This document shows positions 2,458 to 14,975 of a DNA stretch of 64,000 nucleotides, piece after piece. Source of the DNA: Escherichia coli (GTDB taxonomy: Bacteria; Pseudomonadota; Gammaproteobacteria; Enterobacterales; Enterobacteriaceae). The DNA lies in NCBI RefSeq assembly GCF_036507355.1, contig NZ_AP027877.1; one strand, written 5' to 3'. Numbering within the stretch: the stretch's first letter is position 1; the number at the start of each line of letters is the position of its first letter. Made by a program: the position numbers and the translations under genes. The notes under the pieces were generated by a model. It did no database searches and was not told the origin of the DNA. It saw nothing but the letters and a program-made list of their open reading frames with translations.

Positions 2458-3161
2458 TGGATTTGCCCCTATATTTCCAGACACCTGTTATCACTTAACC
2501 CATTACTGGCCCGCTGCCGCAGATATTCCCGTGGCGAGCGATAACCCAGCGCACTATGCGGATGCCATTCGTTATAATGCTCGAACGCCTCTGCAAGGTT
2601 CTTTGCTGCCGTTAACCCGTCTGGTTTGGGCATGATACTTATGTAGTCACGCTTTATCGTTTTCACGAAGCTCTCTGCTATTCCGTTACTCTCCGGACTC
2701 CGCACTGCCGTGTTCTTCGGTTCAAGTCCCAACATCCTGGCGAACTGACGTGTTTCATTCGCCCGGTAGCATGAACCATTATCCGTCAGCCACTCCACTG
2801 GAGACGCCGGAAGCTCGCTGCCAAAGCGGCGTTCCACTGCTCCCAGCATGACGTCCTGTACTGTTTCACTGTCGAAGCCACCCGTTGTGACCCCCCAGTG
2901 CAGTGCCTCACGGTCACAGCAGTCCAACGCGAACGTGACCCGCAGTTTTTCTCCGTTATCACAGCGGAACTCAAACCCGTCAGAGCACCATCGCTGATTA
3001 CTTTCTTTCACAGCCACTCTGCCGGTATGTGCCCGTTTCGATGGCGGTACAGCGGGTTTTCGCTCAAGCAACAGCGCATTCTGGCGCATGATCCGGTAAA
3101 CACGTTTGGCATTGATCGCAGGCATACCATCAAGTTCTGTTTGTCTGCGAAGCAGCGCCCA
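2458..3161 (-). mobile_element. IS2 remnant: right inverted repeat plus 3' part of orfB (IS3-family transposase), 5' portion deleted
   Basis: ORF 2469-3125 matches the IS2 OrfB C-terminal region as I remember it (...[36 protein letters not shown]...[12 protein letters not shown]); terminus TGGATTTGCCCCTATATTTCCAGACA at 2458. Similarity stops abruptly near 3161. Confidence 0.8.
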
Positions 3162-3636
3162 TAACGCAGCCCTTGCCTTACTGGTGTTTCTGGCCCTGAC
3201 CGGATTACGCCTTGGTGAAACCCGTTATCTTCTGCTTGAGGATATCGACTGGTCCCGTCAGACCATCACTTTGCGAGAAACTAAAAACGGTAAGCTTCGC
3301 TGTGTGCCAGTGGGTGATAAGGCCTTTGTTCTTCTGACTGAGCAGCGCCAGCACTTGGGCGATAAAGGCTGGGTTTTCCCCGGCTATAACACAACTAATC
3401 CGGTTGCAGAACCACGCCGTCTGCAAAAGCGTATATGTGAGAAAGCCGGTATTTCACCATTCACTATTCATGAGATGCGACACACTTTCGCCACGAAACT
3501 TATCGAGAGTGGGGCTGACATCCATACCATCAAAGATTTACTGGGCCACAGCACCATAAAGGTTACCGAGAGGTACCTACATGGCAGCCCGGTGCGCTAC
3601 CACGAGGCCATTAACAAGGCGATGGATACGTTCTAG
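3160..3636 (+). pseudogene. Tyrosine recombinase (phage-type integrase) C-terminal catalytic fragment, N-terminus missing
   Basis: ORF 3106-3636 carries integrase catalytic motifs (HEMRHTFAT, LLGHSTIKVTERYLH) but only ~160 aa; directly abuts the truncated IS2 segment. Confidence 0.7.
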
Positions 3637-3717: not shown

Positions 3718-5643
3718 ATGAATAACATAGTGACACCCGCCCCCTTAACGACAATGGCGCGTTTTGCCTGTTCGAAACTGAATGGATTTCTGGCTCGTCG
3801 GGCTTTGCATCAGGCAAATGCGAAGAAAATCCTTAAAAAGGCAATTGCAATCAGCATTGCGGTCGATGAGATTTCGGCAAAAGGGGGGCGTGATGGTCTG
3901 CCTGATGGGTTTGTTAACTCACCGCATGGGCTTTTTTATGATGATGGCAAAAAAGTGTTTCAGCTCAGTTCTACTGCTATTGTTCCCGTCAGCAGGCATT
4001 ATTCAGCGTGTAAGAAGCGCAATATGGGTGTCGAACTCATGACCATTAATCATGCGGGTCAGTATGTCTGCGCTGAAATTTCACTGAGCAACGTTACGCT
4101 AAACCCCGATAGTGTGATTGGCTCCCTGACAGCGCAAGGTTTCGGTATCCCTATGACGGTAAAGACGAAAGAGCTGTTGGCGCAGTTCTTACAGACATGT
4201 ATGAAGCAAGCGCTGGCTCTCCCTACCTACCTTGTCGCTGATTCAATGGGATTTGTACCCGGCAAGAAAGCGTTCTTACATGGCAATATGCCTTTAGCAC
4301 AGAACATCCCTGGGTTTGATTACCTTATTTCCGTTCAGCGTACACCCGCAGGGATCGTTGAGTCCGGCACGCTGGATGCGTGGAAGGCTCTGGTGAAAAA
4401 GAATGTCCATGGATGGCCACAGATTTTTGCATTGTGTTCTGCCTTTGCGTCCATGCTGGTTGCATTGTGTAAAATGGATGTGGCGATGTTTCACTTCTAT
4501 GGTGGGTCAACGACTGGAAAAACGATCCTTCTCCAGCTTGCGATGTCAGTTCATGGTCATGGCGGGGAGCCGGGAAGTGGAAAGCTTGTCAATGTTCTTC
4601 GCTGGAATACCACGGTGAATGCGCTAGAGAAGCGACTGAGTCAGTTCTCAGGCCTGCTGGCATGTGTGGATGAGTTGGGGGCTTATAAACAAAAGGACTT
4701 CGCTTCGCTCCTGTACAACATTACCGCCGGTCAGGGTAAAAGCAGAATGGACAAGAATCTGGATATACGTGAGCTTTATACATGGGAAATGTTAATTCTC
4801 TCCGCAGGTGAAATGTCCATTTCTGAGAAGCTAGCGACGGAAAAAGAACATCTTCAGGGTGGACAGGAACATCGCGCCATTAGCCTCAATGTTTTGCCTG
4901 AAGATGCCCGTAAAGACGGCGAATCATCAGAAAGGGTACGCTGCCGCGCTGATAGTCTGAAAAATGGCCTGAGTGAAGTTTATGGTACGGCGGGTAAGGA
5001 ATTTATTGCTAATTTGCTGGCACTGGATAATGACGATGATGAACCGCAGTCCTGGGATGAAATGTGCCTGTCTATTCAGGGGGCAGTAGAAGAACAACGT
5101 GACAGTCTTGTCGGTGAGCTGCAGGAAGAAGGTTATGCACTTAGTGACATTCAGCTGCGTGCATTAAAACGATTTTCCCTATGTTTGTGTGCCGGAATCC
5201 TGGCAGCATCATGGAATATCCTTCCGTTCAGTGAAGATATTATTAAGGGTGCGGTAATGAGCGCGGCTCGTCGCTGGCTGGATGATAAACCAAACCAGTA
5301 TAGCCCACTAAAGCAGGTGCTTACGGCTATCCAGCACGATCTTCTCACAACCAGAGCGTCCCATTTAATGCCGTTGCTTGATGAGGATGCGCATACCCCA
5401 TACAACCACTGGGGGTACACGGATAAGAACGATAACATGATGATTTTCGCTCCTGTTTTTGAAGGCTGGTGTGCCAAAAAAGGCATTAAACCTGCTGATG
5501 TGGCGAAAGCATTGGCAAAAAAAAATCACCTCAAACCAGAAAGTCAGGGCCACTACAAAAAACGTCCTCAGAAGGGAGTTCAGCAACCTTTTTATCTGGT
5601 TATGAATACATTTCTTGGCTGTAACATTGGCGCTGACTTTTAA
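3718..5643 (+). CDS. DUF927-like protein with P-loop NTPase (primase/helicase-like replication protein of integrative elements)
   Basis: 641-aa ORF with Walker A GGSTTGKT and Walker B-like CVDELG; architecture recalled from P4-like/integrative-element replication proteins. Confidence 0.55.
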   Translation: MNNIVTPAPLTTMARFACSKLNGFLARRALHQANAKKILKKAIAISIAVDEISAKGGRDGLPDGFVNSPHGLFYDDGKKVFQLSSTAIVPVSRHYSACKKRNMGVELMTINHAGQYVCAEISLSNVTLNPDSVIGSLTAQGFGIPMTVKTKELLAQFLQTCMKQALALPTYLVADSMGFVPGKKAFLHGNMPLAQNIPGFDYLISVQRTPAGIVESGTLDAWKALVKKNVHGWPQIFALCSAFASMLVALCKMDVAMFHFYGGSTTGKTILLQLAMSVHGHGGEPGSGKLVNVLRWNTTVNALEKRLSQFSGLLACVDELGAYKQKDFASLLYNITAGQGKSRMDKNLDIRELYTWEMLILSAGEMSISEKLATEKEHLQGGQEHRAISLNVLPEDARKDGESSERVRCRADSLKNGLSEVYGTAGKEFIANLLALDNDDDEPQSWDEMCLSIQGAVEEQRDSLVGELQEEGYALSDIQLRALKRFSLCLCAGILAASWNILPFSEDIIKGAVMSAARRWLDDKPNQYSPLKQVLTAIQHDLLTTRASHLMPLLDEDAHTPYNHWGYTDKNDNMMIFAPVFEGWCAKKGIKPADVAKALAKKNHLKPESQGHYKKRPQKGVQQPFYLVMNTFLGCNIGADF

Positions 5644-6365: not shown

Positions 6366-7553
6366 CTACAACGTATCGGGTAACTGAGCGCGGATACGTT
6401 CCGCCAGTAACTGACTGGTGTTCTGTAAGCGCTGAGGATGAAGATGTGCATAACGCTGTGAAGACTGACTGCTACGGTGCCCCAGTTGAGCCTGAACGTC
6501 ATATAGCGTACCGCCGTAGGACACGATGAGGGCGGCAACCGAATGGCGGCAGGTATGGATACACACTTCCTTGTCGAAAATTCCCGCCCGACGCACGATA
6601 CGCTGAAAGGCTTTAACCGGGTTACTCAGCGGCATTCCCTGTTTTTTACCAATAAACAACCACGGATTTCCCCGCTGCGTTGGCAGCGTTCTGATTACGT
6701 CCATCGCCAGTGAGTTAAGGTGAACAATCCGTCCATAGCCATTCTTGGTTTCAGGGAGCCACAGGGTGCGTTTAACCGGGTCAACATGCTCCCACTTTGC
6801 CAGACGCAGCTCATCGCGGCGAAGGCCGGTCAATAACAGCAGTTTGACATAGCGGGCAGCTACAGGGCTGGTATCGTTATCGGCGGAGAGAAAAATACGA
6901 CGAATTTCGTCCTCGGTAAAATAACGCTGTCGGGCGTTGTTCTCCCTGAGTAGCTGTACCACCCTTGCCGGATGAACAGAGGTCATGCTTTGCCTTCCGG
7001 CCCATGTAAAGACGGCTTTAATGAGTACGATGACACGGTTACAGGTAGCCGCTGACAGGGAAGTACTTAACGTCTGCTGAAGGCGCAGAATGCTCGCTGG
7101 TGTGATATCGCTCAGCAGCCTCTGACCAATGGCGGGACGGATATGATCGCGGTAGCGCTGAACATCCTTTCCCCAACTGCGTTTAGCGGATTTTGCCCAT
7201 GGCAGATAATGCTGATTAAAGAGTTCATCGAACGTCAGCTCCATTCTCTTGTTTTCACGCTCCTGCTTAGGGTCAGTGCCGGTGGCAAGGGAACGTTTGT
7301 GTTCTATGGCAATCTGACGGGCAAGATTGACGTCCACTTCAGGCCAGTGACCAATGGCGATGGCGCGTTTTCGTCCATGATAGAGGTAGCGGAGCAAAAA
7401 CTTTTTACGACCTTCTTTTCTGCTGACCAGACACTTGAGGCCGGAAATCTCGGTGTCGCTGTATTCGGCATCGGTGCTGCGTGCATCTGATGTGTTAGGG
7501 GGCAGTGATTTAATGAGCTGATTAGTAAAACGGAAGCGTTTGGGAGTGGACAT
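6366..7553 (-). CDS. int: P4-type tyrosine integrase
   Basis: 395-aa ORF with arm-binding-like N-terminus and catalytic R..HxxR..Y region (HTCRHSVAALIV, LGHRSSQSSQRYAHL); lies 7.3 kb from tRNA-Phe and is transcribed away from it. Confidence 0.85.
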   Translation of the reverse strand: MSTPKRFRFTNQLIKSLPPNTSDARSTDAEYSDTEISGLKCLVSRKEGRKKFLLRYLYHGRKRAIAIGHWPEVDVNLARQIAIEHKRSLATGTDPKQERENKRMELTFDELFNQHYLPWAKSAKRSWGKDVQRYRDHIRPAIGQRLLSDITPASILRLQQTLSTSLSAATCNRVIVLIKAVFTWAGRQSMTSVHPARVVQLLRENNARQRYFTEDEIRRIFLSADNDTSPVAARYVKLLLLTGLRRDELRLAKWEHVDPVKRTLWLPETKNGYGRIVHLNSLAMDVIRTLPTQRGNPWLFIGKKQGMPLSNPVKAFQRIVRRAGIFDKEVCIHTCRHSVAALIVSYGGTLYDVQAQLGHRSSQSSQRYAHLHPQRLQNTSQLLAERIRAQLPDTL

Positions 7554-7985
7554 ATAACCTCCTGTGACTGGTGTAAAGAACGTCAGGGTTGACCCATCCC
7601 CGGCACGGCGTTGTTAATGGCTAAGTTGATTTTCTGGCATGGCGAAGGGAATGCTGGTGCCACATGGTATGAATTAAGACGGGAAATGCAGAAAGAGCAG
7701 GCTTTACGGTCTGATTCTGGTCTTAAGGGAAAAGATTGCCGTTGGGGAAGAGTTCACAGAAATAATATGTGTTTCAGTCTAGAACAATTACATGCCATGA
7801 GGATCAAGAGAGTTGCCCGTATATGGCAGGTATCAAAGTTGGTTATGGATGTTGCCAAAACATAGTGGGGATGGATGTTGAAGTGCTAACTTGATGTTTT
7901 TAATGGGAAAGTGTAAATTGCGTGATGCGTTGCACTCATGTAGATAACACCATTGAAAGTATCAAATTGTTTGAAAAAAAATCAT

Positions 7986-8066: not shown

Positions 8067-9119
8067 ATGGGGATCATCGTACGAATTCTTAAAGCTAACC
8101 ATGGCGATTGCATTTTGGTGAGCCATGAAAGCGGTTCAGGCACTCTCAACTTGCTCATTGATGGGGGACCTGCGACGACATTCAGGTATGGCATTAGGCA
8201 GCGCTATTCTGGAGCATTGAGTAACGCTCTCGATGATCTGAAAGGAAAGGGGCAAAACATTGATCTGGCTATCCTGACCCACATTGATGATGATCACATA
8301 AATGGTTTTATCAAGGCATTCGAAAGTCCAAACTATCTGCGTCAGCTGGTTAAATCGATCTGGTTCAATTCTTCGAGGTTAATCACACATCATTTTAATG
8401 TGCCTGAAATTTGTGAAAATAATATTTTCTTGCAGGAAGTTTCCCCTGAAACTAGCGTTAAACAGGGGCAAGAACTTGAGGCATTACTTGATGAAATCGG
8501 ATGTGTGCGAGCACCGCTCATTATGGCAGGGCAAATCTACAAAGTAGGCCCGATTACTTTAACAGCACTTTCACCTGAACGAAGACAACTCGAACAGCTT
8601 TTGCATAAGTGGCCAACGGAAGTAAGTTCAGCTGACACTTCTTCATATGAGAATGATTATCACCGTTCATTGGACGAAATTTGGGCAGATGATAGATTTG
8701 AATCTGACTCATCTATTTATAATGGAAGCTCAATTGCATTTTTACTGGAAACAGATGACAAAAAAATGCTTTTTTTAGGAGACGCCAATGACCAAGTTGT
8801 TACAAAAAATTTAAGAGCATTGGGCTATAGCGAAACAAACAAGTTGAAGCTGGATCTGGTTAAAGTTTCGCATCATGGTAGTCAATACAACACAAGCAAC
8901 GAATTTCTTTCAATACTAGATTCTCCATGCTTTGTTATTTCAACCAATGGTTCGAAGCATGGTCTTCCTAATAAAAGGACTATTGCAAGGATCTTAAAGG
9001 AAACAGATGGTGATATTTATTTTAATTACAGCAATGTAATTACTCCGCTGCTTTTAGCGCATGAAGCTGAGAGCTATTCTTCTCGTCTAAAAGTGCTAGG
9101 TGATGAGATTAAATTCTAA
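8067..9119 (+). CDS. Metallo-beta-lactamase-fold hydrolase (putative nuclease)
   Basis: 350-aa ORF with MBL motifs in canonical order: LIDGG, THIDDDH (8278-8298), FLGDAN, VSHHGS. Confidence 0.7.
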   Translation: MGIIVRILKANHGDCILVSHESGSGTLNLLIDGGPATTFRYGIRQRYSGALSNALDDLKGKGQNIDLAILTHIDDDHINGFIKAFESPNYLRQLVKSIWFNSSRLITHHFNVPEICENNIFLQEVSPETSVKQGQELEALLDEIGCVRAPLIMAGQIYKVGPITLTALSPERRQLEQLLHKWPTEVSSADTSSYENDYHRSLDEIWADDRFESDSSIYNGSSIAFLLETDDKKMLFLGDANDQVVTKNLRALGYSETNKLKLDLVKVSHHGSQYNTSNEFLSILDSPCFVISTNGSKHGLPNKRTIARILKETDGDIYFNYSNVITPLLLAHEAESYSSRLKVLGDEIKF

Positions 9120-10419
9120 CATGACAGTTTACGAAATAATGCAGTCCCACTGCGTCATGGTTAATGGTGGCAGTGGTGTGCTAGTTAATGCAATGACACT
9201 GGATTACACATATGTACTGACTGCATACCATGTTATTCGTGACACTCTCGATAATATCGAAGTTACCGATCACAGTGGCAATAAACTTACAGTATTAGCT
9301 GTGCTCCTATATCCAGATATTAAATATTTGAACGAATCCCATAATGATTTCGCAATTTTAAAAATTGAATATCAACCAGAAGTTGCACAAAGTTGTTTTA
9401 CTGCTTCGACGTTGCCTCCTCGTGCTGAGCTTACATTAGTAGGATTTCCAAACACTGAAAGAAGGAGTTCGGATCCTATAAAATATTATGATGGACATAT
9501 GACTAGCGTGGTCGATGAGCTTGTCATTTTCACTGTTGATGGTGTACCAGGCTTAGCCACGATAAAGGGGATGTCAGGTGGAGGTGTATATCACATAGTT
9601 GGTAGAAATACATTTCTTGTTGGTGTTGAGTTTAGGATGGATGGCACTGAAGAGGAACAACAGTTTGGCCGAGTGCAATGCCATAGCTTAGCAAAGTTTG
9701 ATGAAATAATAAGAGCATACGATAGCGCACCGATGATTCCTGCCCATTTGGAATGCTTTTCTCGAATACAAGACAAAATATTTAAATTTAATGTTATTGA
9801 TCAAAACAATGTTCGTAATCTTAAAGATGCGTTAGAAGCCCTTTCCAGATCACTTATAGCTAGTGGGATGTCTCCGCCTTACAAAATCATGGGGCAATAT
9901 GGATTACAGCTTTTGATGGATCCCAAAACTCCTAATGAGCTCAGTAATAAAGAGTTATGGATTTCTTATTTTGAATTTTTAGTTATTTGCTCTGTGATAG
10001 ATAATGTTGGAATTGTGGATGATGCATATATAAAAAGCTTGGAGCGAAAGCGGCGGCTATTATATACCAGTAATGGTGCGAACTGGATTAGCCATTTGGA
10101 AGAACTACTCAAAACGGCACGAAAACTTTTAGATAAGGATGGCACTTTAATCGTTGCATCACCTGATGCTGCTGCAAGTGTCTTGCCTCCGAACTTTCGA
10201 CTTAAAAACGTAATAAGTAATATAGCGGTAGTGCCAAACCAGGGGCCGTTTGCTATCGATGAAGTTGAAAGTTCTATTTATACAAGCTTCAAATTAACTC
10301 ATCTGGAGGGACTCCGCAAAAGCTGCGTAATAGACCGTGAGGATGAATATCTAGTAGTTCCAGCAGGTGTACCACAATTGCAGTTATTTAAGGAGAAGCT
10401 TAATGAAATTATTAAGTAA
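9100..10419 (+). CDS. Trypsin-like serine protease domain fused to a ~250-aa C-terminal domain of unknown function
   Basis: His (LTAYHVI), Asp (NDFAILK), Ser (GMSGGGVY) in S1 order in the first ~170 aa. Start ambiguous (GTG 9100, ATG 9103 or ATG 9121); overlaps or abuts the upstream stop. Confidence 0.7.
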   Translation: MMRLNSNMTVYEIMQSHCVMVNGGSGVLVNAMTLDYTYVLTAYHVIRDTLDNIEVTDHSGNKLTVLAVLLYPDIKYLNESHNDFAILKIEYQPEVAQSCFTASTLPPRAELTLVGFPNTERRSSDPIKYYDGHMTSVVDELVIFTVDGVPGLATIKGMSGGGVYHIVGRNTFLVGVEFRMDGTEEEQQFGRVQCHSLAKFDEIIRAYDSAPMIPAHLECFSRIQDKIFKFNVIDQNNVRNLKDALEALSRSLIASGMSPPYKIMGQYGLQLLMDPKTPNELSNKELWISYFEFLVICSVIDNVGIVDDAYIKSLERKRRLLYTSNGANWISHLEELLKTARKLLDKDGTLIVASPDAAASVLPPNFRLKNVISNIAVVPNQGPFAIDEVESSIYTSFKLTHLEGLRKSCVIDREDEYLVVPAGVPQLQLFKEKLNEIIK

Positions 10420-10942
10420 GGAAGTCGATCTGAGTATTTTAAGTGTGAAATATGATAAAATCAGATTTCACATGTATTGCTCAGATGATCCACTTTCATT
10501 TATTTCCTGTATAGTATGTGTATGTGAGACTTCAGCCGATATTTTGGAGAATTGGCGTACTATTCAAAATGTGGTTTCTGTTCACTATCAACCATCGGGT
10601 GACTTAGCATCTTGGAATATGTATATTGTTTTTTTTACAACTGATGTTTTTCCTGTATGGGAAAAATATGAAATAGAAAACAATAAGTTTGCTGCTCGCA
10701 AGATAATTATTGATAAATTCTCAGGTGCCCCCACCTCTGCTCAGTTAGTTACTGAGTTGCAAAAATATTTGTTGGGAACAGACTTAAGACTTGATCCGCG
10801 AGTCAATGAGTCAAAAGAGGCTTTATTGTCTTTAGATAAATACGTTCGTGGTGCTCCATTAGATTCAAAGAATGAGTCCAGAGAAATCCGCGCCTCCATG
10901 GTCAATGAAATAATTAAATTTTTGAACAAAAATGAAAATTAA
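10403..10942 (+). CDS. Small protein of unknown function (possible adaptor component)
   Basis: 179-aa ORF from ATG 10403 with AGGAG upstream; overlaps previous gene end by 17 nt and next gene start by 11 nt. Confidence 0.55.
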   Translation: MKLLSKEVDLSILSVKYDKIRFHMYCSDDPLSFISCIVCVCETSADILENWRTIQNVVSVHYQPSGDLASWNMYIVFFTTDVFPVWEKYEIENNKFAARKIIIDKFSGAPTSAQLVTELQKYLLGTDLRLDPRVNESKEALLSLDKYVRGAPLDSKNESREIRASMVNEIIKFLNKNEN

Positions 10943-13900
10943 AAAAGTTGAGATTGAAGCATTTCGTGCCTACAAATCTAGGTCAGATGGCACGTTTGAT
11001 TTCACGAATGATGGAGATGTTGCTGCAAATTTTGTTGCGATCTATGCTCCGAATGGTTTTGGTAAAAGCTCCTTCTACGATGCTGTTGAATGGGCAATTA
11101 CCAATCACATGGCAAGACTTGGCGGAGAATATAATAAAGCTAATTATGAGAACGCTGCCAAAATCACCAAGGACGATAATGTTGGGCAAGAAATTTTACG
11201 TAATAAATATGTAGATAAAAATATACGCACAAAGGTAGTGGTATCAACCACTCGACCACTCCCTTTTGAGCGTAAACTACCCAAAGTCAGATCTAATGGG
11301 CGTGATTTGCGATTCGGAGATAATAGTCAAAGAGAAAATGATTTTTTCCGACAAGTGATTCTAAGTCAAGATGAAATTGATAGATTTCTCCGAGAAGCCA
11401 AACCGCAAGAGCGCTATACGAAATTTATGGAAAGTTTCGGTGGAGATATTGAAATTGCCCGTAAAGAGCTGTCAGTACTTATAAATGATAATAAGATTGA
11501 GTTGAATAATCTCAATAAAAAGAGAGAATCTATTCTTGAACAATTAAAACAACCAATAGATTCTTCAATTTTCCAAAAATTCAATTCTATTGCTGTTGAA
11601 TTGAATAAGTTGGGTGAAAATATTCAATTACCTGACGAGAGTTTTTCATCTCAAGATGAATATGCTCTTAATGTTAGTCTTATATCGCGACGCCATGAAC
11701 TCGACTCATCACGTTTAACGAACAATCGAACGGTAGAAGCACTGGAAGACAGGCTTCTAAAAATATCTGAAACTGAATTACATGTCCGCAGTTTAGCAGA
11801 ACAGAATTTACATCTTGCTAAATTAGTGAAAGGAGTGGCCGACGCTGATAGGTACCAATCACTTTTGGATTCATACGAAAAATGTGCAGAAGATCAGAAA
11901 ACCACACACATGCATATGACTCGTATTATAGAAGTGATTGATTGCCTTGATGATTTTCTAAAAATTGAGTCTCATCTTCTTGAGTTGTCTACTAGCCAAA
12001 AGATAATTTCTGAAGAACGCACCAAGATCTGTGCGCAGCTTGCAGGTTTTGAAACAACAATTAATCAATTGAATAAGGAGCTTAAGGCTGTAGATGATAG
12101 GGTCGCTATACTTAGGAAGACCGTTGATAACGCCGGGCAAGTATATTTGGAGCTCGCAAATAACCGGGCTCGGGTAAGTAACCTAACACAGCAAATATCA
12201 AAAAAAGAAGTTTCTATTAAGATAGATAAATCTAGGCTTGGGGAGTTGAATCGTGAGTTGACTAGACTTTCTGAACTCAATATTAATGCCACCTCATTAT
12301 CAAACGGAAATCTAGGGACCTTACTTTTAGAACCTACGAAAGTTGAGCAGCTGACGAGATGTTACGCCGAGTTTGATGTGATTGAATCACAAATTCAAGC
12401 TGTGCATGTTACTCAAAAAGCATTATCTGAACAGATGGAATTGCATGAACGACTGATTGCCATTGGAATTGACTATCTTAGTGTACGACCATCCAGTATC
12501 TGTCCTTTATGTACAGCTCCTCACCCATCTGCGGACGGTTTACTGGATAAAATTAAAGGGCGGAACCTTTTATCAGAATTAAGTGAGGAGAATTCTAAAC
12601 AGCTTTTATTTTTCTCTACACGTCAGAAAGAAATTCTTCAATCAATTCAGGATATTACTCAGTGCGCAATTGATTCAAAGGCTCAGTTGATTATTAACTT
12701 AAACAAGGAATTGAGTGAGACTGACGAGAGACTTACTCTTGCAGGTAGAGATATATATTCAATAGAAGCAGAGTTAAAGACTCTTGAGAAACGGACCACA
12801 GAGTTAGAAAGTTTAGTTTGGGCACTTTCACATGATGAACTGGTATCCCGAATTGAAAAAGAAATTGGTGAGCTTTCAATCAAAAGTTCAAAGCTCCTAG
12901 AAGGAAAAGCATTAATTACCCCTCAGGTTGAAATGCTTAATGAATCACTCAAAGAAAAAGACTCTGCGCAGCAAAAAATAGCTTCGGAGTTGGAAGGTAT
13001 CTTTAGCGGAAATATCTACATTACAGTTTATAAATACTTAAATGAAAATGCGATTTCGTCTTCATCCCTCAAAAGTCATACTGAAAAAAGGAAACTAGAG
13101 ATTGAGGCTGAAATAATTAAGTGTAAAACCACTATTGAGTTTTTGACTGAACAATGTGCTGTTTTACAGCAAAAAATGTTAAGTGATGGTATGTGGGTGG
13201 ATTTTGTTCAGTTGAAGCTGCAAAAAGAATCTTTAGAAATAAGTGTTGCCCGCTCTCAATCAGTAATTAACACGTTTTATGAGAGTTTATCTAACCTTAT
13301 AATTATCCGTCCTGAGTACAGTCTTGAAAAAGTCAAAGAGCTCATAGCTGCGAAAGTTCAGGATTGCCATCTTCGTACGAAAGAATTTGATAGGCTCTCA
13401 AATAATATTAATTTACTCATAGAACTTATGAGTTCGTTTAAGCCATATATTAAACATACAGCTCTTCAGAAAGATTTAATGGCTGAAGAGATGTTAATAA
13501 AACAGCGTGAACGGGTCGACACTACTTTAACCGCAGAAAGAGATGCAATAGTGGATAGCCTGAAACTTCTTATCAATAATTTCTTCTATGAAGATCTTAT
13601 TAATTCTATTTATAAGAAGATAGATCCGCATCCTGCCTTTAAAAAAGTAGAGTTTAAGGCTGACTTTGATTCTGATAAGCCAGGCCTAAATATTGTGGTT
13701 AGTGATGAGGTTGGAGAGCAAATCTCGCCAATACTTTATTTCAGTGCGGCTCAAACGAATATTCTAAGCTTAAGTGTCTTTTTAGCTAGTGCACTTCATG
13801 CGAAAGACGATGAGGGTAATCCCATCAATGTTGTTATGATTGATGACCCAATTCAGTCAATGGATTCGATTAATATACTCTCTACGATAGATCTTTTAAG

Positions 13901-14063
13901 AAGTATATGTGTTCAATTTGATAAACAAATTATTATTTCAACGCATGATGAAAACTTCTTTGCCTTACTCCAGCGCAAAATCCCTGCCCAAATTTTTGGA
14001 TCTAAATTCTTGCAATTGGAAAAGTTTGGTGTAGTCGTCCCGGTGCAACCCTTTGTGAACTAA
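10932..14063 (+). CDS. SbcC/Rad50-like ABC ATPase with long coiled coil and central CxxC zinc hook
   Basis: 1043 aa: Walker A NGFGKSS (Lys codon 11064-11066), Q-loop ILSQDE, CPLC at 12501-12512 (residues 524-527, mid-protein), signature-like FSAAQ, Walker B VVMIDDP, H-loop STHDE. The middle ~600 aa are heptad-rich and Leu/Glu/Lys-rich. Confidence 0.8.
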   Translation: MKIKKVEIEAFRAYKSRSDGTFDFTNDGDVAANFVAIYAPNGFGKSSFYDAVEWAITNHMARLGGEYNKANYENAAKITKDDNVGQEILRNKYVDKNIRTKVVVSTTRPLPFERKLPKVRSNGRDLRFGDNSQRENDFFRQVILSQDEIDRFLREAKPQERYTKFMESFGGDIEIARKELSVLINDNKIELNNLNKKRESILEQLKQPIDSSIFQKFNSIAVELNKLGENIQLPDESFSSQDEYALNVSLISRRHELDSSRLTNNRTVEALEDRLLKISETELHVRSLAEQNLHLAKLVKGVADADRYQSLLDSYEKCAEDQKTTHMHMTRIIEVIDCLDDFLKIESHLLELSTSQKIISEERTKICAQLAGFETTINQLNKELKAVDDRVAILRKTVDNAGQVYLELANNRARVSNLTQQISKKEVSIKIDKSRLGELNRELTRLSELNINATSLSNGNLGTLLLEPTKVEQLTRCYAEFDVIESQIQAVHVTQKALSEQMELHERLIAIGIDYLSVRPSSICPLCTAPHPSADGLLDKIKGRNLLSELSEENSKQLLFFSTRQKEILQSIQDITQCAIDSKAQLIINLNKELSETDERLTLAGRDIYSIEAELKTLEKRTTELESLVWALSHDELVSRIEKEIGELSIKSSKLLEGKALITPQVEMLNESLKEKDSAQQKIASELEGIFSGNIYITVYKYLNENAISSSSLKSHTEKRKLEIEAEIIKCKTTIEFLTEQCAVLQQKMLSDGMWVDFVQLKLQKESLEISVARSQSVINTFYESLSNLIIIRPEYSLEKVKELIAAKVQDCHLRTKEFDRLSNNINLLIELMSSFKPYIKHTALQKDLMAEEMLIKQRERVDTTLTAERDAIVDSLKLLINNFFYEDLINSIYKKIDPHPAFKKVEFKADFDSDKPGLNIVVSDEVGEQISPILYFSAAQTNILSLSVFLASALHAKDDEGNPINVVMIDDPIQSMDSINILSTIDLLRSICVQFDKQIIISTHDENFFALLQRKIPAQIFGSKFLQLEKFGVVVPVQPFVN

Positions 14064-14559
14064 AGTGCTTGCACTGCCTCTAAACAATCTGCATGCACAT
14101 CTCGTTGACTAAATTTGAAACGAGATGTGCATTGCTCGTTATAAAAATAAGGCATGTTCTAATTATCCAATCCCCATCAGTATAAGTGGGTGGATAGATA
14201 TATTTGGCCCCTTTAACAGATATGTTAATTTCCACTTTTCGCTTACAGTGGACCTGCAGCTCAGTAACTTACTCACTTTGTGCTAGGAACGGGCATTGCT
14301 AATAGTCAGAGTGTATGACCTGCTCATCGTTGATTAAGGACAGCGCTGTACTGGTTCGTTGAACCCACGGCTCACAACGGACACTCAGGTTATTATTCCA
14401 ATACGTTTAGCTCAAGTAGTATTACTACGGATAAATCATTTTATGATGGCGTGGAGAACGGGGGGATTCTGAAAATGGTAAGAAGTGAAAGGGCAAGAAG
14501 AGCTTGTTGCAGGTGGACGGACTGGTGAAGATTCCCATCTGGAGGGTGTATGCTGCCAA

Positions 14560-14730
14560 GTTTCCCCGCTTGCTATTGGGGATTTCCCCACCTTATTCCC
14601 CGCGACAAAATCATGTTAAGACCAGCGGATTAAGGAGAAATGATAATTCCCCCGTTTTCCCCGTATTTTCTACTTCATTATGAATGATCTGAGAGAAAGG
14701 AACCGTAGAGGACCGTAGAAAGACCGTAGC
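14560..14730. repeat. Clustered short direct repeats (five TTCCCC motifs at 14561-14663; three ACCGTAG repeats at 14702-14729, ~10-11 bp phasing)
   Basis: Read directly from the sequence in the 840-bp non-coding stretch between the operon and tRNA-Phe. Confidence 0.4.
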
Positions 14731-14899: not shown

Positions 14900-14975
14900 T
14901 GGTGCCCGGACTCGGAATCGAACCAAGGACACGGGGATTTTCAATCCCCTGCTCTACCGACTGAGCTATCCGGGC
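14900..14975 (-). tRNA. pheV: tRNA-Phe (GAA anticodon)
   Basis: Reverse complement reads GCCCGGATAGCTCAGTCGGTAGAGCAGGGGATTGAAAATCCCCGTGTCCTTGGTTCGATTCCGAGTCCGGGCACCA, the E. coli tRNA-Phe as I remember it; position next to yqgA-speC indicates pheV. Confidence 0.95.

Follow-up and report, generated by a model that had tools for sequence, protein, structure and literature searches.

A gene pair that couples a metallo-beta-lactamase (MBL) fold nuclease with a partner protease was recently studied by Tuck et al. (Science 2025; PMC12799240). In the Hachiman system HamMAB of Pseudomonas fluorescens, protease-HamA cleaves the nuclease PflHamM behind I118 and I218, and the cleaved protein degrades DNA, not RNA, whereas intact PflHamM does not degrade DNA. 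Defence is abolished by mutating either of these two HamM isoleucines or the active site of the nuclease, protease or helicase (the inactive mutants include PflHamM H289A and PflHamA S157A), forced dimerisation of the protease suffices for toxicity, and the protease left other proteins uncleaved. Infection likewise leads to cleavage of EpiAvs1a beside I134, and defence is lost with I134K/I234K; nucleases that are inactive until cut, and DNases afterwards, have been described in HamM, Avs1a (by cleavage in vivo) and CanC (PMC12799240). We analysed a 64,000-nucleotide (nt) stretch of Escherichia coli DNA (the window; contig NZ_AP027877.1 of RefSeq assembly GCF_036507355.1), in which a gene at 8067-9119 encodes a protein 28-31% identical, nearly over its full length (E=1e-26 to 1e-39), to Bacillus LmuA-H, EpiAvs1a, PflHamM and KaeCanC, the reference sequences being those of Table S1 of Tuck et al. 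In our assessment this gene probably encodes the pro-nuclease LmuA-H of a long Lamassu (ABC-three component, ABC-3C) anti-phage system of the Hydrolase-Protease subtype, unlocked by a protease.

Lamassu systems comprise a short and a long family, the long one having a LmuB ATPase with a Walker B motif of the form hhhhDD and being closest to SbcC (Haudiquet et al., 10.1101/2025.04.02.646746). The same authors argue that long Lamassu derives from SbcCD, with long-Lamassu LmuC descending from the C-terminal domain of SbcD. The one long system that they note as validated, that of B. cereus B4077 (Millman et al. 2022), is anti-phage and carries 'Hydrolase-Protease' effectors. For a short Cap4-type Lamassu, LmuABC was described as binding DNA ends, upon which LmuA is released and oligomerises to its active form (10.1101/2025.04.02.646746).

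The locus in the window compares closely with the long family. Four genes lie on one strand with junctions of +1 nt (MBL/protease), -17 nt (protease/LmuC) and -11 nt (LmuC/LmuB), and the product of each matches the corresponding Lamassu model of PADLOC along its full length (Table 1). We took the criteria for the long type, a LmuB of about 1000 amino acids (aa) and Walker B hhhhDD, from 10.1101/2025.04.02.646746. Because of the PADLOC matches, and because the 1043-aa LmuB with its VVMIDD motif and central CPLC fits the long-type description, we class the operon as long Lamassu, in the Hydrolase-Protease subtype that is already catalogued. The Rad50-like ATPase that the initial annotation had named as partner is this LmuB: besides its PADLOC match it has Pfam matches to AAA_23 (6e-13) and SMC_N, a match to Rad50 chain 3qf7 (E=9e-4) in a search of solved-structure sequences, a Walker A motif (GFGKSS, 42-47), an SAAQ signature at 938, Walker B ending at 972, STHD at 1003-1006, and a CxxC hook, CPLC, at exactly mid-length. 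RefSeq calls three of the operon proteins parts of an ABC-three component system, LmuC being 'ABC-three component system middle component 1'; the PADLOC alignment of LmuC begins at residue 13 of the longer open reading frame (ORF). The same four-gene layout surrounds four diverse MBL relatives (~33-37% identity). A JetABC-like Wadjet with an odd nuclease, guessed from the sizes of 439, 191 and 1043 aa, was rejected, since all genes match Lamassu models and none a Wadjet model. At a fifth relative, in an NCBI metagenome-assembled genome (locus L051, 3144-4867), LmuC (MComp1) and LmuB (AAA_23) are called as one fused gene.

The MBL gene is an intact ORF of 350 aa running from ATG to TAA, and RefSeq has the same coding sequence in each of the three E. 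coli genomes with this DNA. Its place as first gene of the operon, already proposed in the initial annotation, is borne out by a 201-nt gap on its 5' side and by the related loci, where the cassette begins with the MBL gene after unrelated upstream genes. A first protein search returned 2540 homologues, the closest homologue in Serratia being 95% identical, and 347 representative clusters match at E<=1e-30. All conservation figures below refer to a working alignment of 142 sequences, the query and 141 relatives at 30-95% identity, which also served as input for AlphaFold2. Plasmid records hold 28 plasmids (11 conjugative) with a relative of 31-43% identity, from hosts that include Enterobacter, Providencia, Shewanella, Bacillus and Rhizobium; a phage genome collection held no relative at E<=1e-20. 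The protein also matches the PADLOC models RTasMBL (DRT-associated MBL; 8e-64) and Avs1a (9e-48). Its NCBIfam Avs1a match (E=1.4e-59) scores 201.8 bits, under the equivalog cut-off of 420, and the query is therefore not an Avs1a.

Sequence and predicted structure agree on the kind of enzyme. The four motifs on which the initial annotation had built its fold assignment are all present (LIDGG at residues 30-34, THIDDDH at 71-77, FLGDAN at 236-241 and VSHHGS at 267-272), and the AlphaFold2 model (mean predicted local distance difference test score, pLDDT, 94.1; predicted template modelling score 0.93) has as its best PDB fold match the beta-lactamase-like nuclease domain of ComEC (9ic4, E=8e-14). 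Next come the phosphorylcholine esterase Pce (1wra, 2bib; E ~1e-11) and, lower, beta-CASP nucleases (query-normalised TM-score 0.3-0.4) and Apyc1 (7u2r, E=1e-6). Among solved-structure sequences ComEC chains stand on top and all other matches have E>0.1, and the single Pfam match is a weak one to Lactamase_B (E=5.9e-5). In beta-CASP nucleases such as RNase J and CPSF73, a beta-CASP domain is inserted in the MBL fold. No beta-CASP family is among the Pfam matches of the query, in which the MBL core and two loops use up all 350 residues; thus, of the earlier proposal of a ComEC/RNase J-type nuclease, the ComEC half stands and the RNase J half does not.

The active site points the same way. Eleven positions are invariant in the alignment (G13, D32, G34, D76, H77, N101, P170, N219, D239, H269 and H270). 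The metal ligands, whose loss in homologues the initial annotation had named as an objection to a nuclease, are essentially invariant in the relatives (Table 1), so that objection falls away. D239 we take to be the metal-ligand aspartate, a role assigned from general knowledge of MBL enzymes. ComEC, a metal-dependent DNase, shares both the HxDxDH variant of the metal-binding motif, H598-x-D600-x-D602-H603 in the crystallised domain from Moorella glycerini, and HHGS (PMC12455585). ComEC H725 and S728, implicated in catalysis or substrate binding (PMC12455585), appear to correspond to H269 and S272 from the alignment of KVPHHGS in 9ic4 with KVSHHGS, and PflHamM H289 aligns to H270. In ComEC the domain is constitutively active and forms the extracytoplasmic end of a channel protein of the membrane, whereas the query is stand-alone and cytosolic.

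Class B metallo-beta-lactamases are secreted and have an HxHxDH zinc site. The query is a ComEC-type MBL-fold enzyme and not a beta-lactamase: it has the HxDxDH motif and no N-terminal extension, and it scores 36.7 bits against a cut-off of 590 for blaAHM. That it has no signal peptide, as stated earlier, is supported by inspection and by the model, in which the first core beta-strand begins at residue 2, and by relatives that align from residues 1-5. Assignment to a small-molecule hydrolase family, the other objection raised in the initial annotation, is not borne out, since no such family approaches its cut-off (blaAHM as above; YtnP lactonase, 16.5 bits against 425).

RefSeq names the product 'ComEC/Rec2 family competence protein', which would make it a component of DNA uptake. 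We give this reading next to no credence, although the name is accompanied by a TIGR00361 match (E=2.6e-6) and by the ComEC matches among PDB sequences. With 25.9 bits the TIGR00361 match stays far short of its cut-off (190.05), and it spans only the last tenth of the model (positions 558-633 of 663); the query consists of the MBL domain only, with no Pfam match to the competence channel or the OB-fold and no room for them in 350 aa; and the gene heads a four-gene Lamassu cassette in a low-GC island. Because the match falls under the cut-off and neither a channel nor an OB domain was detected, the database name is misleading.

Members of the gated pro-nuclease family of Tuck et al. carry, relative to ComEC, two insertions over the active site, each with one conserved residue at which the protease cuts (Ile in the characterised members). 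The stretch from motif 2 to N219 counts 138 residues in the query and 68 in ComEC 9vc6, or ~70 extra. The model has only two marked pLDDT dips, at 121-140 and 181-200, and residues 177-201 are coil. These regions define two putative gating loops, each with one predicted cleavage site (Table 1). The first site reads SPET↓SVKQG (the arrow marks the predicted cut, after T129); T129 is the residue to which the experimental cut residues I118 of PflHamM and I134 of EpiAvs1a align, as does I137 of Bacillus LmuA-H. Direct alignment with HamM and Avs1a placed the second site inconsistently (at E195 and in a gap) and was discarded; because the region aligns unreliably, we sought this site by covariation and motif matching.

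Column 129, the P1 position of the first site, covaries strongly with column 191. Across the 142 sequences the two columns hold T/T in 58, I/I in 14, M/M in 5, K/K in 4, L/L in 4 and V/V in 3, and their mutual information exceeds that of shuffled columns with z=18.4. When nine other loop-2 columns were compared with column 129, the adjacent column 192 (P1') reached z=8.5 and the others at most 3.3. Residues upstream of the paired sites often match too (KYTS/KYTS, LDTS/LDTS, CETS/CETA). An alignment-free comparison gave the same picture: the site-1 pentamer shares a mean of 2.43 identities with its own loop 2, against 1.75 with the loops of other sequences (z=13.5; 0/2000 permutations), and the own-loop value also exceeds that of pairs with the same P1 residue (2.03) and of four control regions (1.39-1.61). 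The pentamer method recovers the mapped second sites of PflHamM (DEEI↓S, I218) and EpiAvs1a (PHVI↓N, I234), and in the query it picks SADT191↓S192. From the alignment to T129, the covariation and the pentamer matching, cleavage is therefore predicted after T129 and T191, and would give fragments of ~14.4, 6.8 and 18.0 kDa. Threonine is the commonest residue at P1, in 71/142 sequences.

The gene directly 3' of the MBL gene encodes a protease, a point missed in the initial annotation. Its product combines a trypsin-like domain (Pfam Trypsin_2, 1.6e-8, residues 17-161; Trypsin, 1.5e-6) with an ABC-3C CTD4 domain (1.3e-59, residues 187-404); residue numbers count from the ATG at 9121. Its putative catalytic triad of H37, D76 and S152 aligns with the triad columns of PflHamA, whose essential S157 corresponds to S152, and with those of 24 other partner proteases. 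A sequence search for solved relatives of the protease returned only spurious matches to 'Pizza' repeat proteins. The RefSeq start of the protease is a GTG equivalent to 9178, 19 codons 3' of the ATG; because the PADLOC model and the relatives align from the ATG, the RefSeq start is probably too far downstream, and it would probably strip the first beta-strand from the protease.

The nuclease and protease travel together through different contexts. A gene with the motif GxSG[GSA] lies directly 3' of the MBL gene in 20/23 related loci, usually overlapping it or within a few nt. We classed the partners in these loci by motif, length pattern and recorded Pfam matches, single-sequence phmmer being too insensitive for the distant loci; the contig of locus L053 is too short for the protease to be on it. 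The protease is fused to CTD4 in long Lamassu; elsewhere it is a protein of ~375 aa in what resemble, by gene size, short Lamassu cassettes, a protein of 480-495 aa followed by STAND/TPR proteins, a single protein of 1300-1900 aa, or the neighbour of a MoxR-type ATPase. This modularity argues for the protease, and against the Rad50-like ATPase, as the functional partner of the nuclease; the MBL protein is most likely linked to the ATPase by way of the protease.

These observations bear directly on the role that the initial annotation had proposed, in which the MBL protein takes the seat of Mre11/SbcD as the nuclease; spelled out, it would dock directly on the Rad50-like LmuB and be its resident, ATP-regulated processing nuclease, with no proteolysis. 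LmuB is indeed Rad50/SbcC-like, the nuclease gene belongs to its operon, and long Lamassu has been argued to descend from SbcCD (10.1101/2025.04.02.646746); the comparison with SbcCD is evolutionarily apt to that extent, with LmuB sharing the ATPase head, long coiled coil and CxxC hook of SbcC/Rad50. Docking of the MBL protein on the ATPase, however, we consider unlikely. The MBL core and the two loops fill the protein and leave it with no docking domain, and its fold differs from the calcineurin-like phosphoesterase fold of Mre11/SbcD, with no extra domain for Rad50 binding. The ATPase-binding piece derived from SbcD is LmuC, and the LmuB-associated CTD4 is on the protease, not the MBL protein. 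Moreover, the same MBL-protease pair occurs under STAND/TPR, MoxR, Hachiman and reverse transcriptase (RT) sensors without Rad50, and docking would leave the matched, co-varying cut-site motifs unexplained. The broader idea, that the gene encodes the nuclease effector of an operon built on a Rad50/SbcC-like ATPase, we judge to be right.

For the protease-unlocked pro-nuclease, we propose the following course of events, by analogy with the systems described above. The 39-kDa MBL protein would be made as a free cytosolic zymogen, with the loops at ~103-133 and ~177-216 covering a two-metal DNase site. The protease-CTD4 protein LmuA would be held inactive on LmuB-LmuC, with LmuB carrying its zinc hook, as suggested by short Cap4-type structures. 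LmuBC may then sense DNA ends or abnormal replication structures of a phage or plasmid, upon which LmuA would be released and oligomerise through its C-terminal domain. The trypsin-like domains (H37/D76/S152), thereby clustered, would cut the zymogen after Thr129 and Thr191. The unlocked nuclease would degrade DNA indiscriminately, and the infected cell would die or arrest, so that phage spread fails.

The partner protease could instead be the true effector, acting on host or phage proteins, with the MBL protein an accessory or a hydrolase of something other than DNA (for instance a phosphodiesterase for a small molecule or for teichoic-acid-like substrates). Such a role would draw on the second-tier fold matches to Pce (1wra, 2bib) and the cyclic-nucleotide phosphodiesterase Apyc1 (7u2r) and on a faint Apyc1 Pfam match recorded for one MBL relative. 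Yet in both sequence and fold the query is nearest the ComEC nuclease, its scores for small-molecule hydrolase families are far under the cut-offs, and the operon holds no nucleotide cyclase or other signal-making enzyme. In HamMAB, the protease spared other proteins, the nuclease site was needed and the cut nuclease degraded DNA (PMC12799240). We regard a protease effector as improbable here.

A set of 25 nuclease-protease pairs shows one more regularity. Protease residue 170 is Glu or Gln in 7/7 pairs with Thr at P1 and in 0/18 pairs with Ile, Val, Leu, Met or Lys there, which carry Phe, Ile, Val or Leu at this position. The sequence SGGG after the catalytic Ser splits the pairs in the same way (7/7 Thr-P1 pairs versus 0/18 others). 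Within long Lamassu only, Thr goes with Glu or Gln in the query and in loci L005, L049, L050 and L051, Ile with Ile in L006, and Lys with Phe in L003 and L052. This pattern fits residue 170 as a putative determinant of the S1 pocket. An Asp six residues before the Ser (trypsin-like), tried by eye as a marker of Lys sites, was not discriminating, being also present in a Thr-type pair. Across the family P1 is Thr, Ile, Met, Lys, Leu, Val, Asn or another residue, and P4-P2 are partly diversified too. We therefore raise, tentatively and as something short of an even chance, that nuclease-protease modules carry private cleavage codes, in which P1 has diversified and is matched across both loops and a pocket residue of the protease. 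The word 'threonine' is absent from the main text and supplements of Tuck et al., and 'specificity' from the main text; the Thr P1 of the query clade, a P1 that is diverse yet matched between loops, and its tracking of a protease residue go beyond that text and its supplements. If true, such codes would keep defence systems that share a cell from setting off one another's nucleases, this E. coli Lamassu would be the first predicted Thr-specific member, and the code would predict which protease pairs with which nuclease and offer a basis for orthogonal protease-gated DNases.

Several points weigh against a protease-unlocked Lamassu nuclease and temper our confidence in it. Although Lamassu carries the same gene pair as the characterised systems, the mechanism is there a model only (Fig. 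3E of PMC12799240). Covering of the metal site by the loops is inferred by homology, and the second cleavage site, in a stretch that aligns poorly, was placed by covariation and by matching of motifs. Threonine is predicted at P1, as opposed to Ile in both characterised homologues, and the covariation of P1 with the protease could partly reflect shared ancestry of the modules. Sensing by LmuB and LmuC, and the release that would follow, are extrapolated from short Cap4-type Lamassu. The operon is also rare, being found in 3/5426 complete E. coli genomes.

This rarity, together with IS2-linked decay nearby in the island, would also suit an inactive relic, the operon being a decaying passenger of the island. 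The four ORFs are intact, however, with coupled junctions, and every checked catalytic residue is kept. The E. coli copies are 99.8-100% identical and the closest Serratia homologue 95% identical, and we see only a slim chance that the operon is such a relic.

Set beside its relatives, the locus is closest in organisation to the Hydrolase-Protease Lamassu of B. cereus B4077 and Bacillus sp. B1-b2 (LmuA-H), which have the same MBL hydrolase, protease-LmuA, LmuC and long LmuB. Bacillus LmuA-H is 31% identical over query residues 3-329 and has the same HxDxDH and HHGS motifs; the query differs in being gammaproteobacterial, in its length (350 aa versus 399) and in having a predicted P1 Thr, rather than Ile, at both sites. 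PflHamM, at 28% identity, has two cut sites, one per loop, as predicted for the query, but its P1 is Ile and the sensor of its system is the HamB helicase, not an SMC/Rad50-like ATPase. EpiAvs1a, of the AVAST type 1 system of Erwinia piriflorinigrans, belongs to the same nuclease family and has paired sites (PHEI↓S and PHVI↓N); the sensor there is a STAND NTPase that recognises the phage terminase. The homologous gated nuclease of canu (caspase-nuclease), KaeCanC, is 28% identical, and its predicted cut glycines G104 and G189 align at S130 and S192; unlike the query it has a caspase-family partner protease, Gly at P1 and a reversed gene order. With respect to SbcCD, the query nuclease has the MBL fold, is probably undocked and would be released as an indiscriminate DNase, whereas SbcD is positioned for site-specific processing.

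With its subtype in PADLOC, a Bacillus representative validated and the nuclease-protease mechanism published in November 2025, the operon is of an already-known kind: a new example of a recently explained mechanism, not new in kind. It corrects a misleading database name, under which an anti-phage effector is listed as a competence protein of the ComEC/Rec2 family, and it locates a rare Lamassu variant in a genetically tractable host. Proteolytic activation of a nuclease has so far been shown for no Lamassu system, and the operon yields concrete predictions for it (the T129 and T191 cuts, the fragments and the catalytic residues).

Table 1. Coordinates of the operon, its functional sites and the surrounding features in the window.
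Feature	Position	Strand	Basis
Island tyrosine integrase, divergent from the operon	6366..7553	-	NCBIfam tyrosine recombinase matches; RefSeq
LmuA-H, 350-aa ComEC-type MBL-fold pro-nuclease (probable)	8067..9119	+	PADLOC LmuA PDLC03854, E=2e-128, residues 2-349
Metal-binding motif H72-I-D74-D-D76-H77 (HxDxDH variant)	8280..8297	+	H72 141/142, D74 136/142, D76 142/142, H77 142/142
Putative gating loop 1 (~103-133), predicted site SPET129↓S130 (T129 codon 8451-8453)	8373..8465	+	Alignment, pLDDT dip
Putative gating loop 2 (~177-216), predicted site SADT191↓S192 (T191 codon 8637-8639)	8595..8714	+	Covariation, motif match, pLDDT dip
D239 of the FLGDA motif, inferred metal ligand	8781..8783	+	Invariant, 142/142
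H269-H270-G271-S272 active-site motif	8871..8882	+	H269 and H270 invariant; S272 139/142
LmuA, trypsin-like serine protease (~17-170) fused to CTD4	9121..10419	+	PADLOC LmuA PDLC03855, E=1.6e-142
Candidate triad residue H37	9229-9231	+	
Candidate triad residue D76	9346-9348	+	
Candidate triad residue S152	9574-9576	+	
Candidate S1 determinant E170	9628-9630	+	
LmuC, ABC-3C middle component 1	10403..10942	+	PADLOC LmuC, E=3.5e-50; Pfam MComp1, 2.3e-8
LmuB, 1043-aa long-type SMC/Rad50/SbcC-like ATPase	10932..14063	+	PADLOC LmuB PDLC03865, E=0, residues 1-1038
CPLC hook of LmuB, residues 524-527	12501-12512	+	
Hairpin just 3' of the lmuB stop, likely operon end	14091..14135	+	Folding compared with shuffles
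tRNA-Phe (GAA), pheV position beside yqgA/speC, chromosomal island edge	14900..14975	-	ARAGORN; RefSeq

Three of the related loci have neighbourhoods of interest in their own right. In L002 (563-4600), an MBL relative of the Ile type is followed by a 128-aa ORF with the protease motif GFSGSG, a 220-aa ORF and a MoxR-like AAA ATPase (bpMoxR/AAA_5), a context that differs from the four systems that Tuck et al. name. Here the sensor may be of another type, or the protease may be split or frameshifted. In L054 (3001-5114), the MBL gene precedes a gene for a 351-aa protein that has the protease motif and no recorded Pfam domain, near genes for BrxE and nSTAND3. In L056 (1679-7059), the MBL gene is overlapped at its start by a patatin gene and precedes genes for a 647-aa protease protein and a TPR protein.

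The operon lies in a genomic island and has a GC content of 37.5%, compared with 51.4% in the flanking chromosome. The hairpin that likely marks its end has a 16-bp stem with one bulge, 13 pairs of which are uninterrupted, and the 101-nt stretch that contains it folds at -30.8 kcal/mol (z=-4.84), with 0/200 shuffles as good. A simple terminator scan reported nothing after lmuB, and missed the hairpin because it has no U-tract. Within the 840-nt non-coding stretch between lmuB and tRNA-Phe, at 14702-14729, are 2.6 tandem copies of an 11-nt unit, ACCGTAGAAAG, with three occurrences of GACCGTAG; these repeats might be binding sites for a recombinase or regulator of the island. A search for att-site direct repeats of the tRNA end, covering the first 16 kb, found none; on its left the island extends past the window start.

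On the other side of the operon, the space between integrase and operon holds an ORF of 82-84 aa (7617-7865, plus strand; RefSeq WP_001096211.1, 'hypothetical protein'), 201 nt 5' of the MBL gene. It has no family match and is absent upstream of the cassette in related loci, and is therefore probably part of the integrase module. A second tyrosine integrase in the region 2458-3636 is reduced to its C-terminal 176 aa (3106-3636). Abutting this remnant is a truncated IS2 (IS3-family) transposase (2469-3125, minus strand), which matches positions 84-301 of the 301-residue IS2 TnpB model. Relative to E. coli YZ22MPE54, ~2.6 kb is replaced here by the ~0.7 kb IS2 remnant, with loss of the integrase 5' part and of a hypothetical gene; the strain of the window is therefore a different one from YZ22MPE54. 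Between the two integrases, 3718-5643 encodes a 641-aa DUF927 protein with a weak resemblance to Cch1, the replicative helicase of SCC cassettes (E=6e-21, well under the cut-off), which suggests that the island replicates itself, or once did, in the manner of a satellite.

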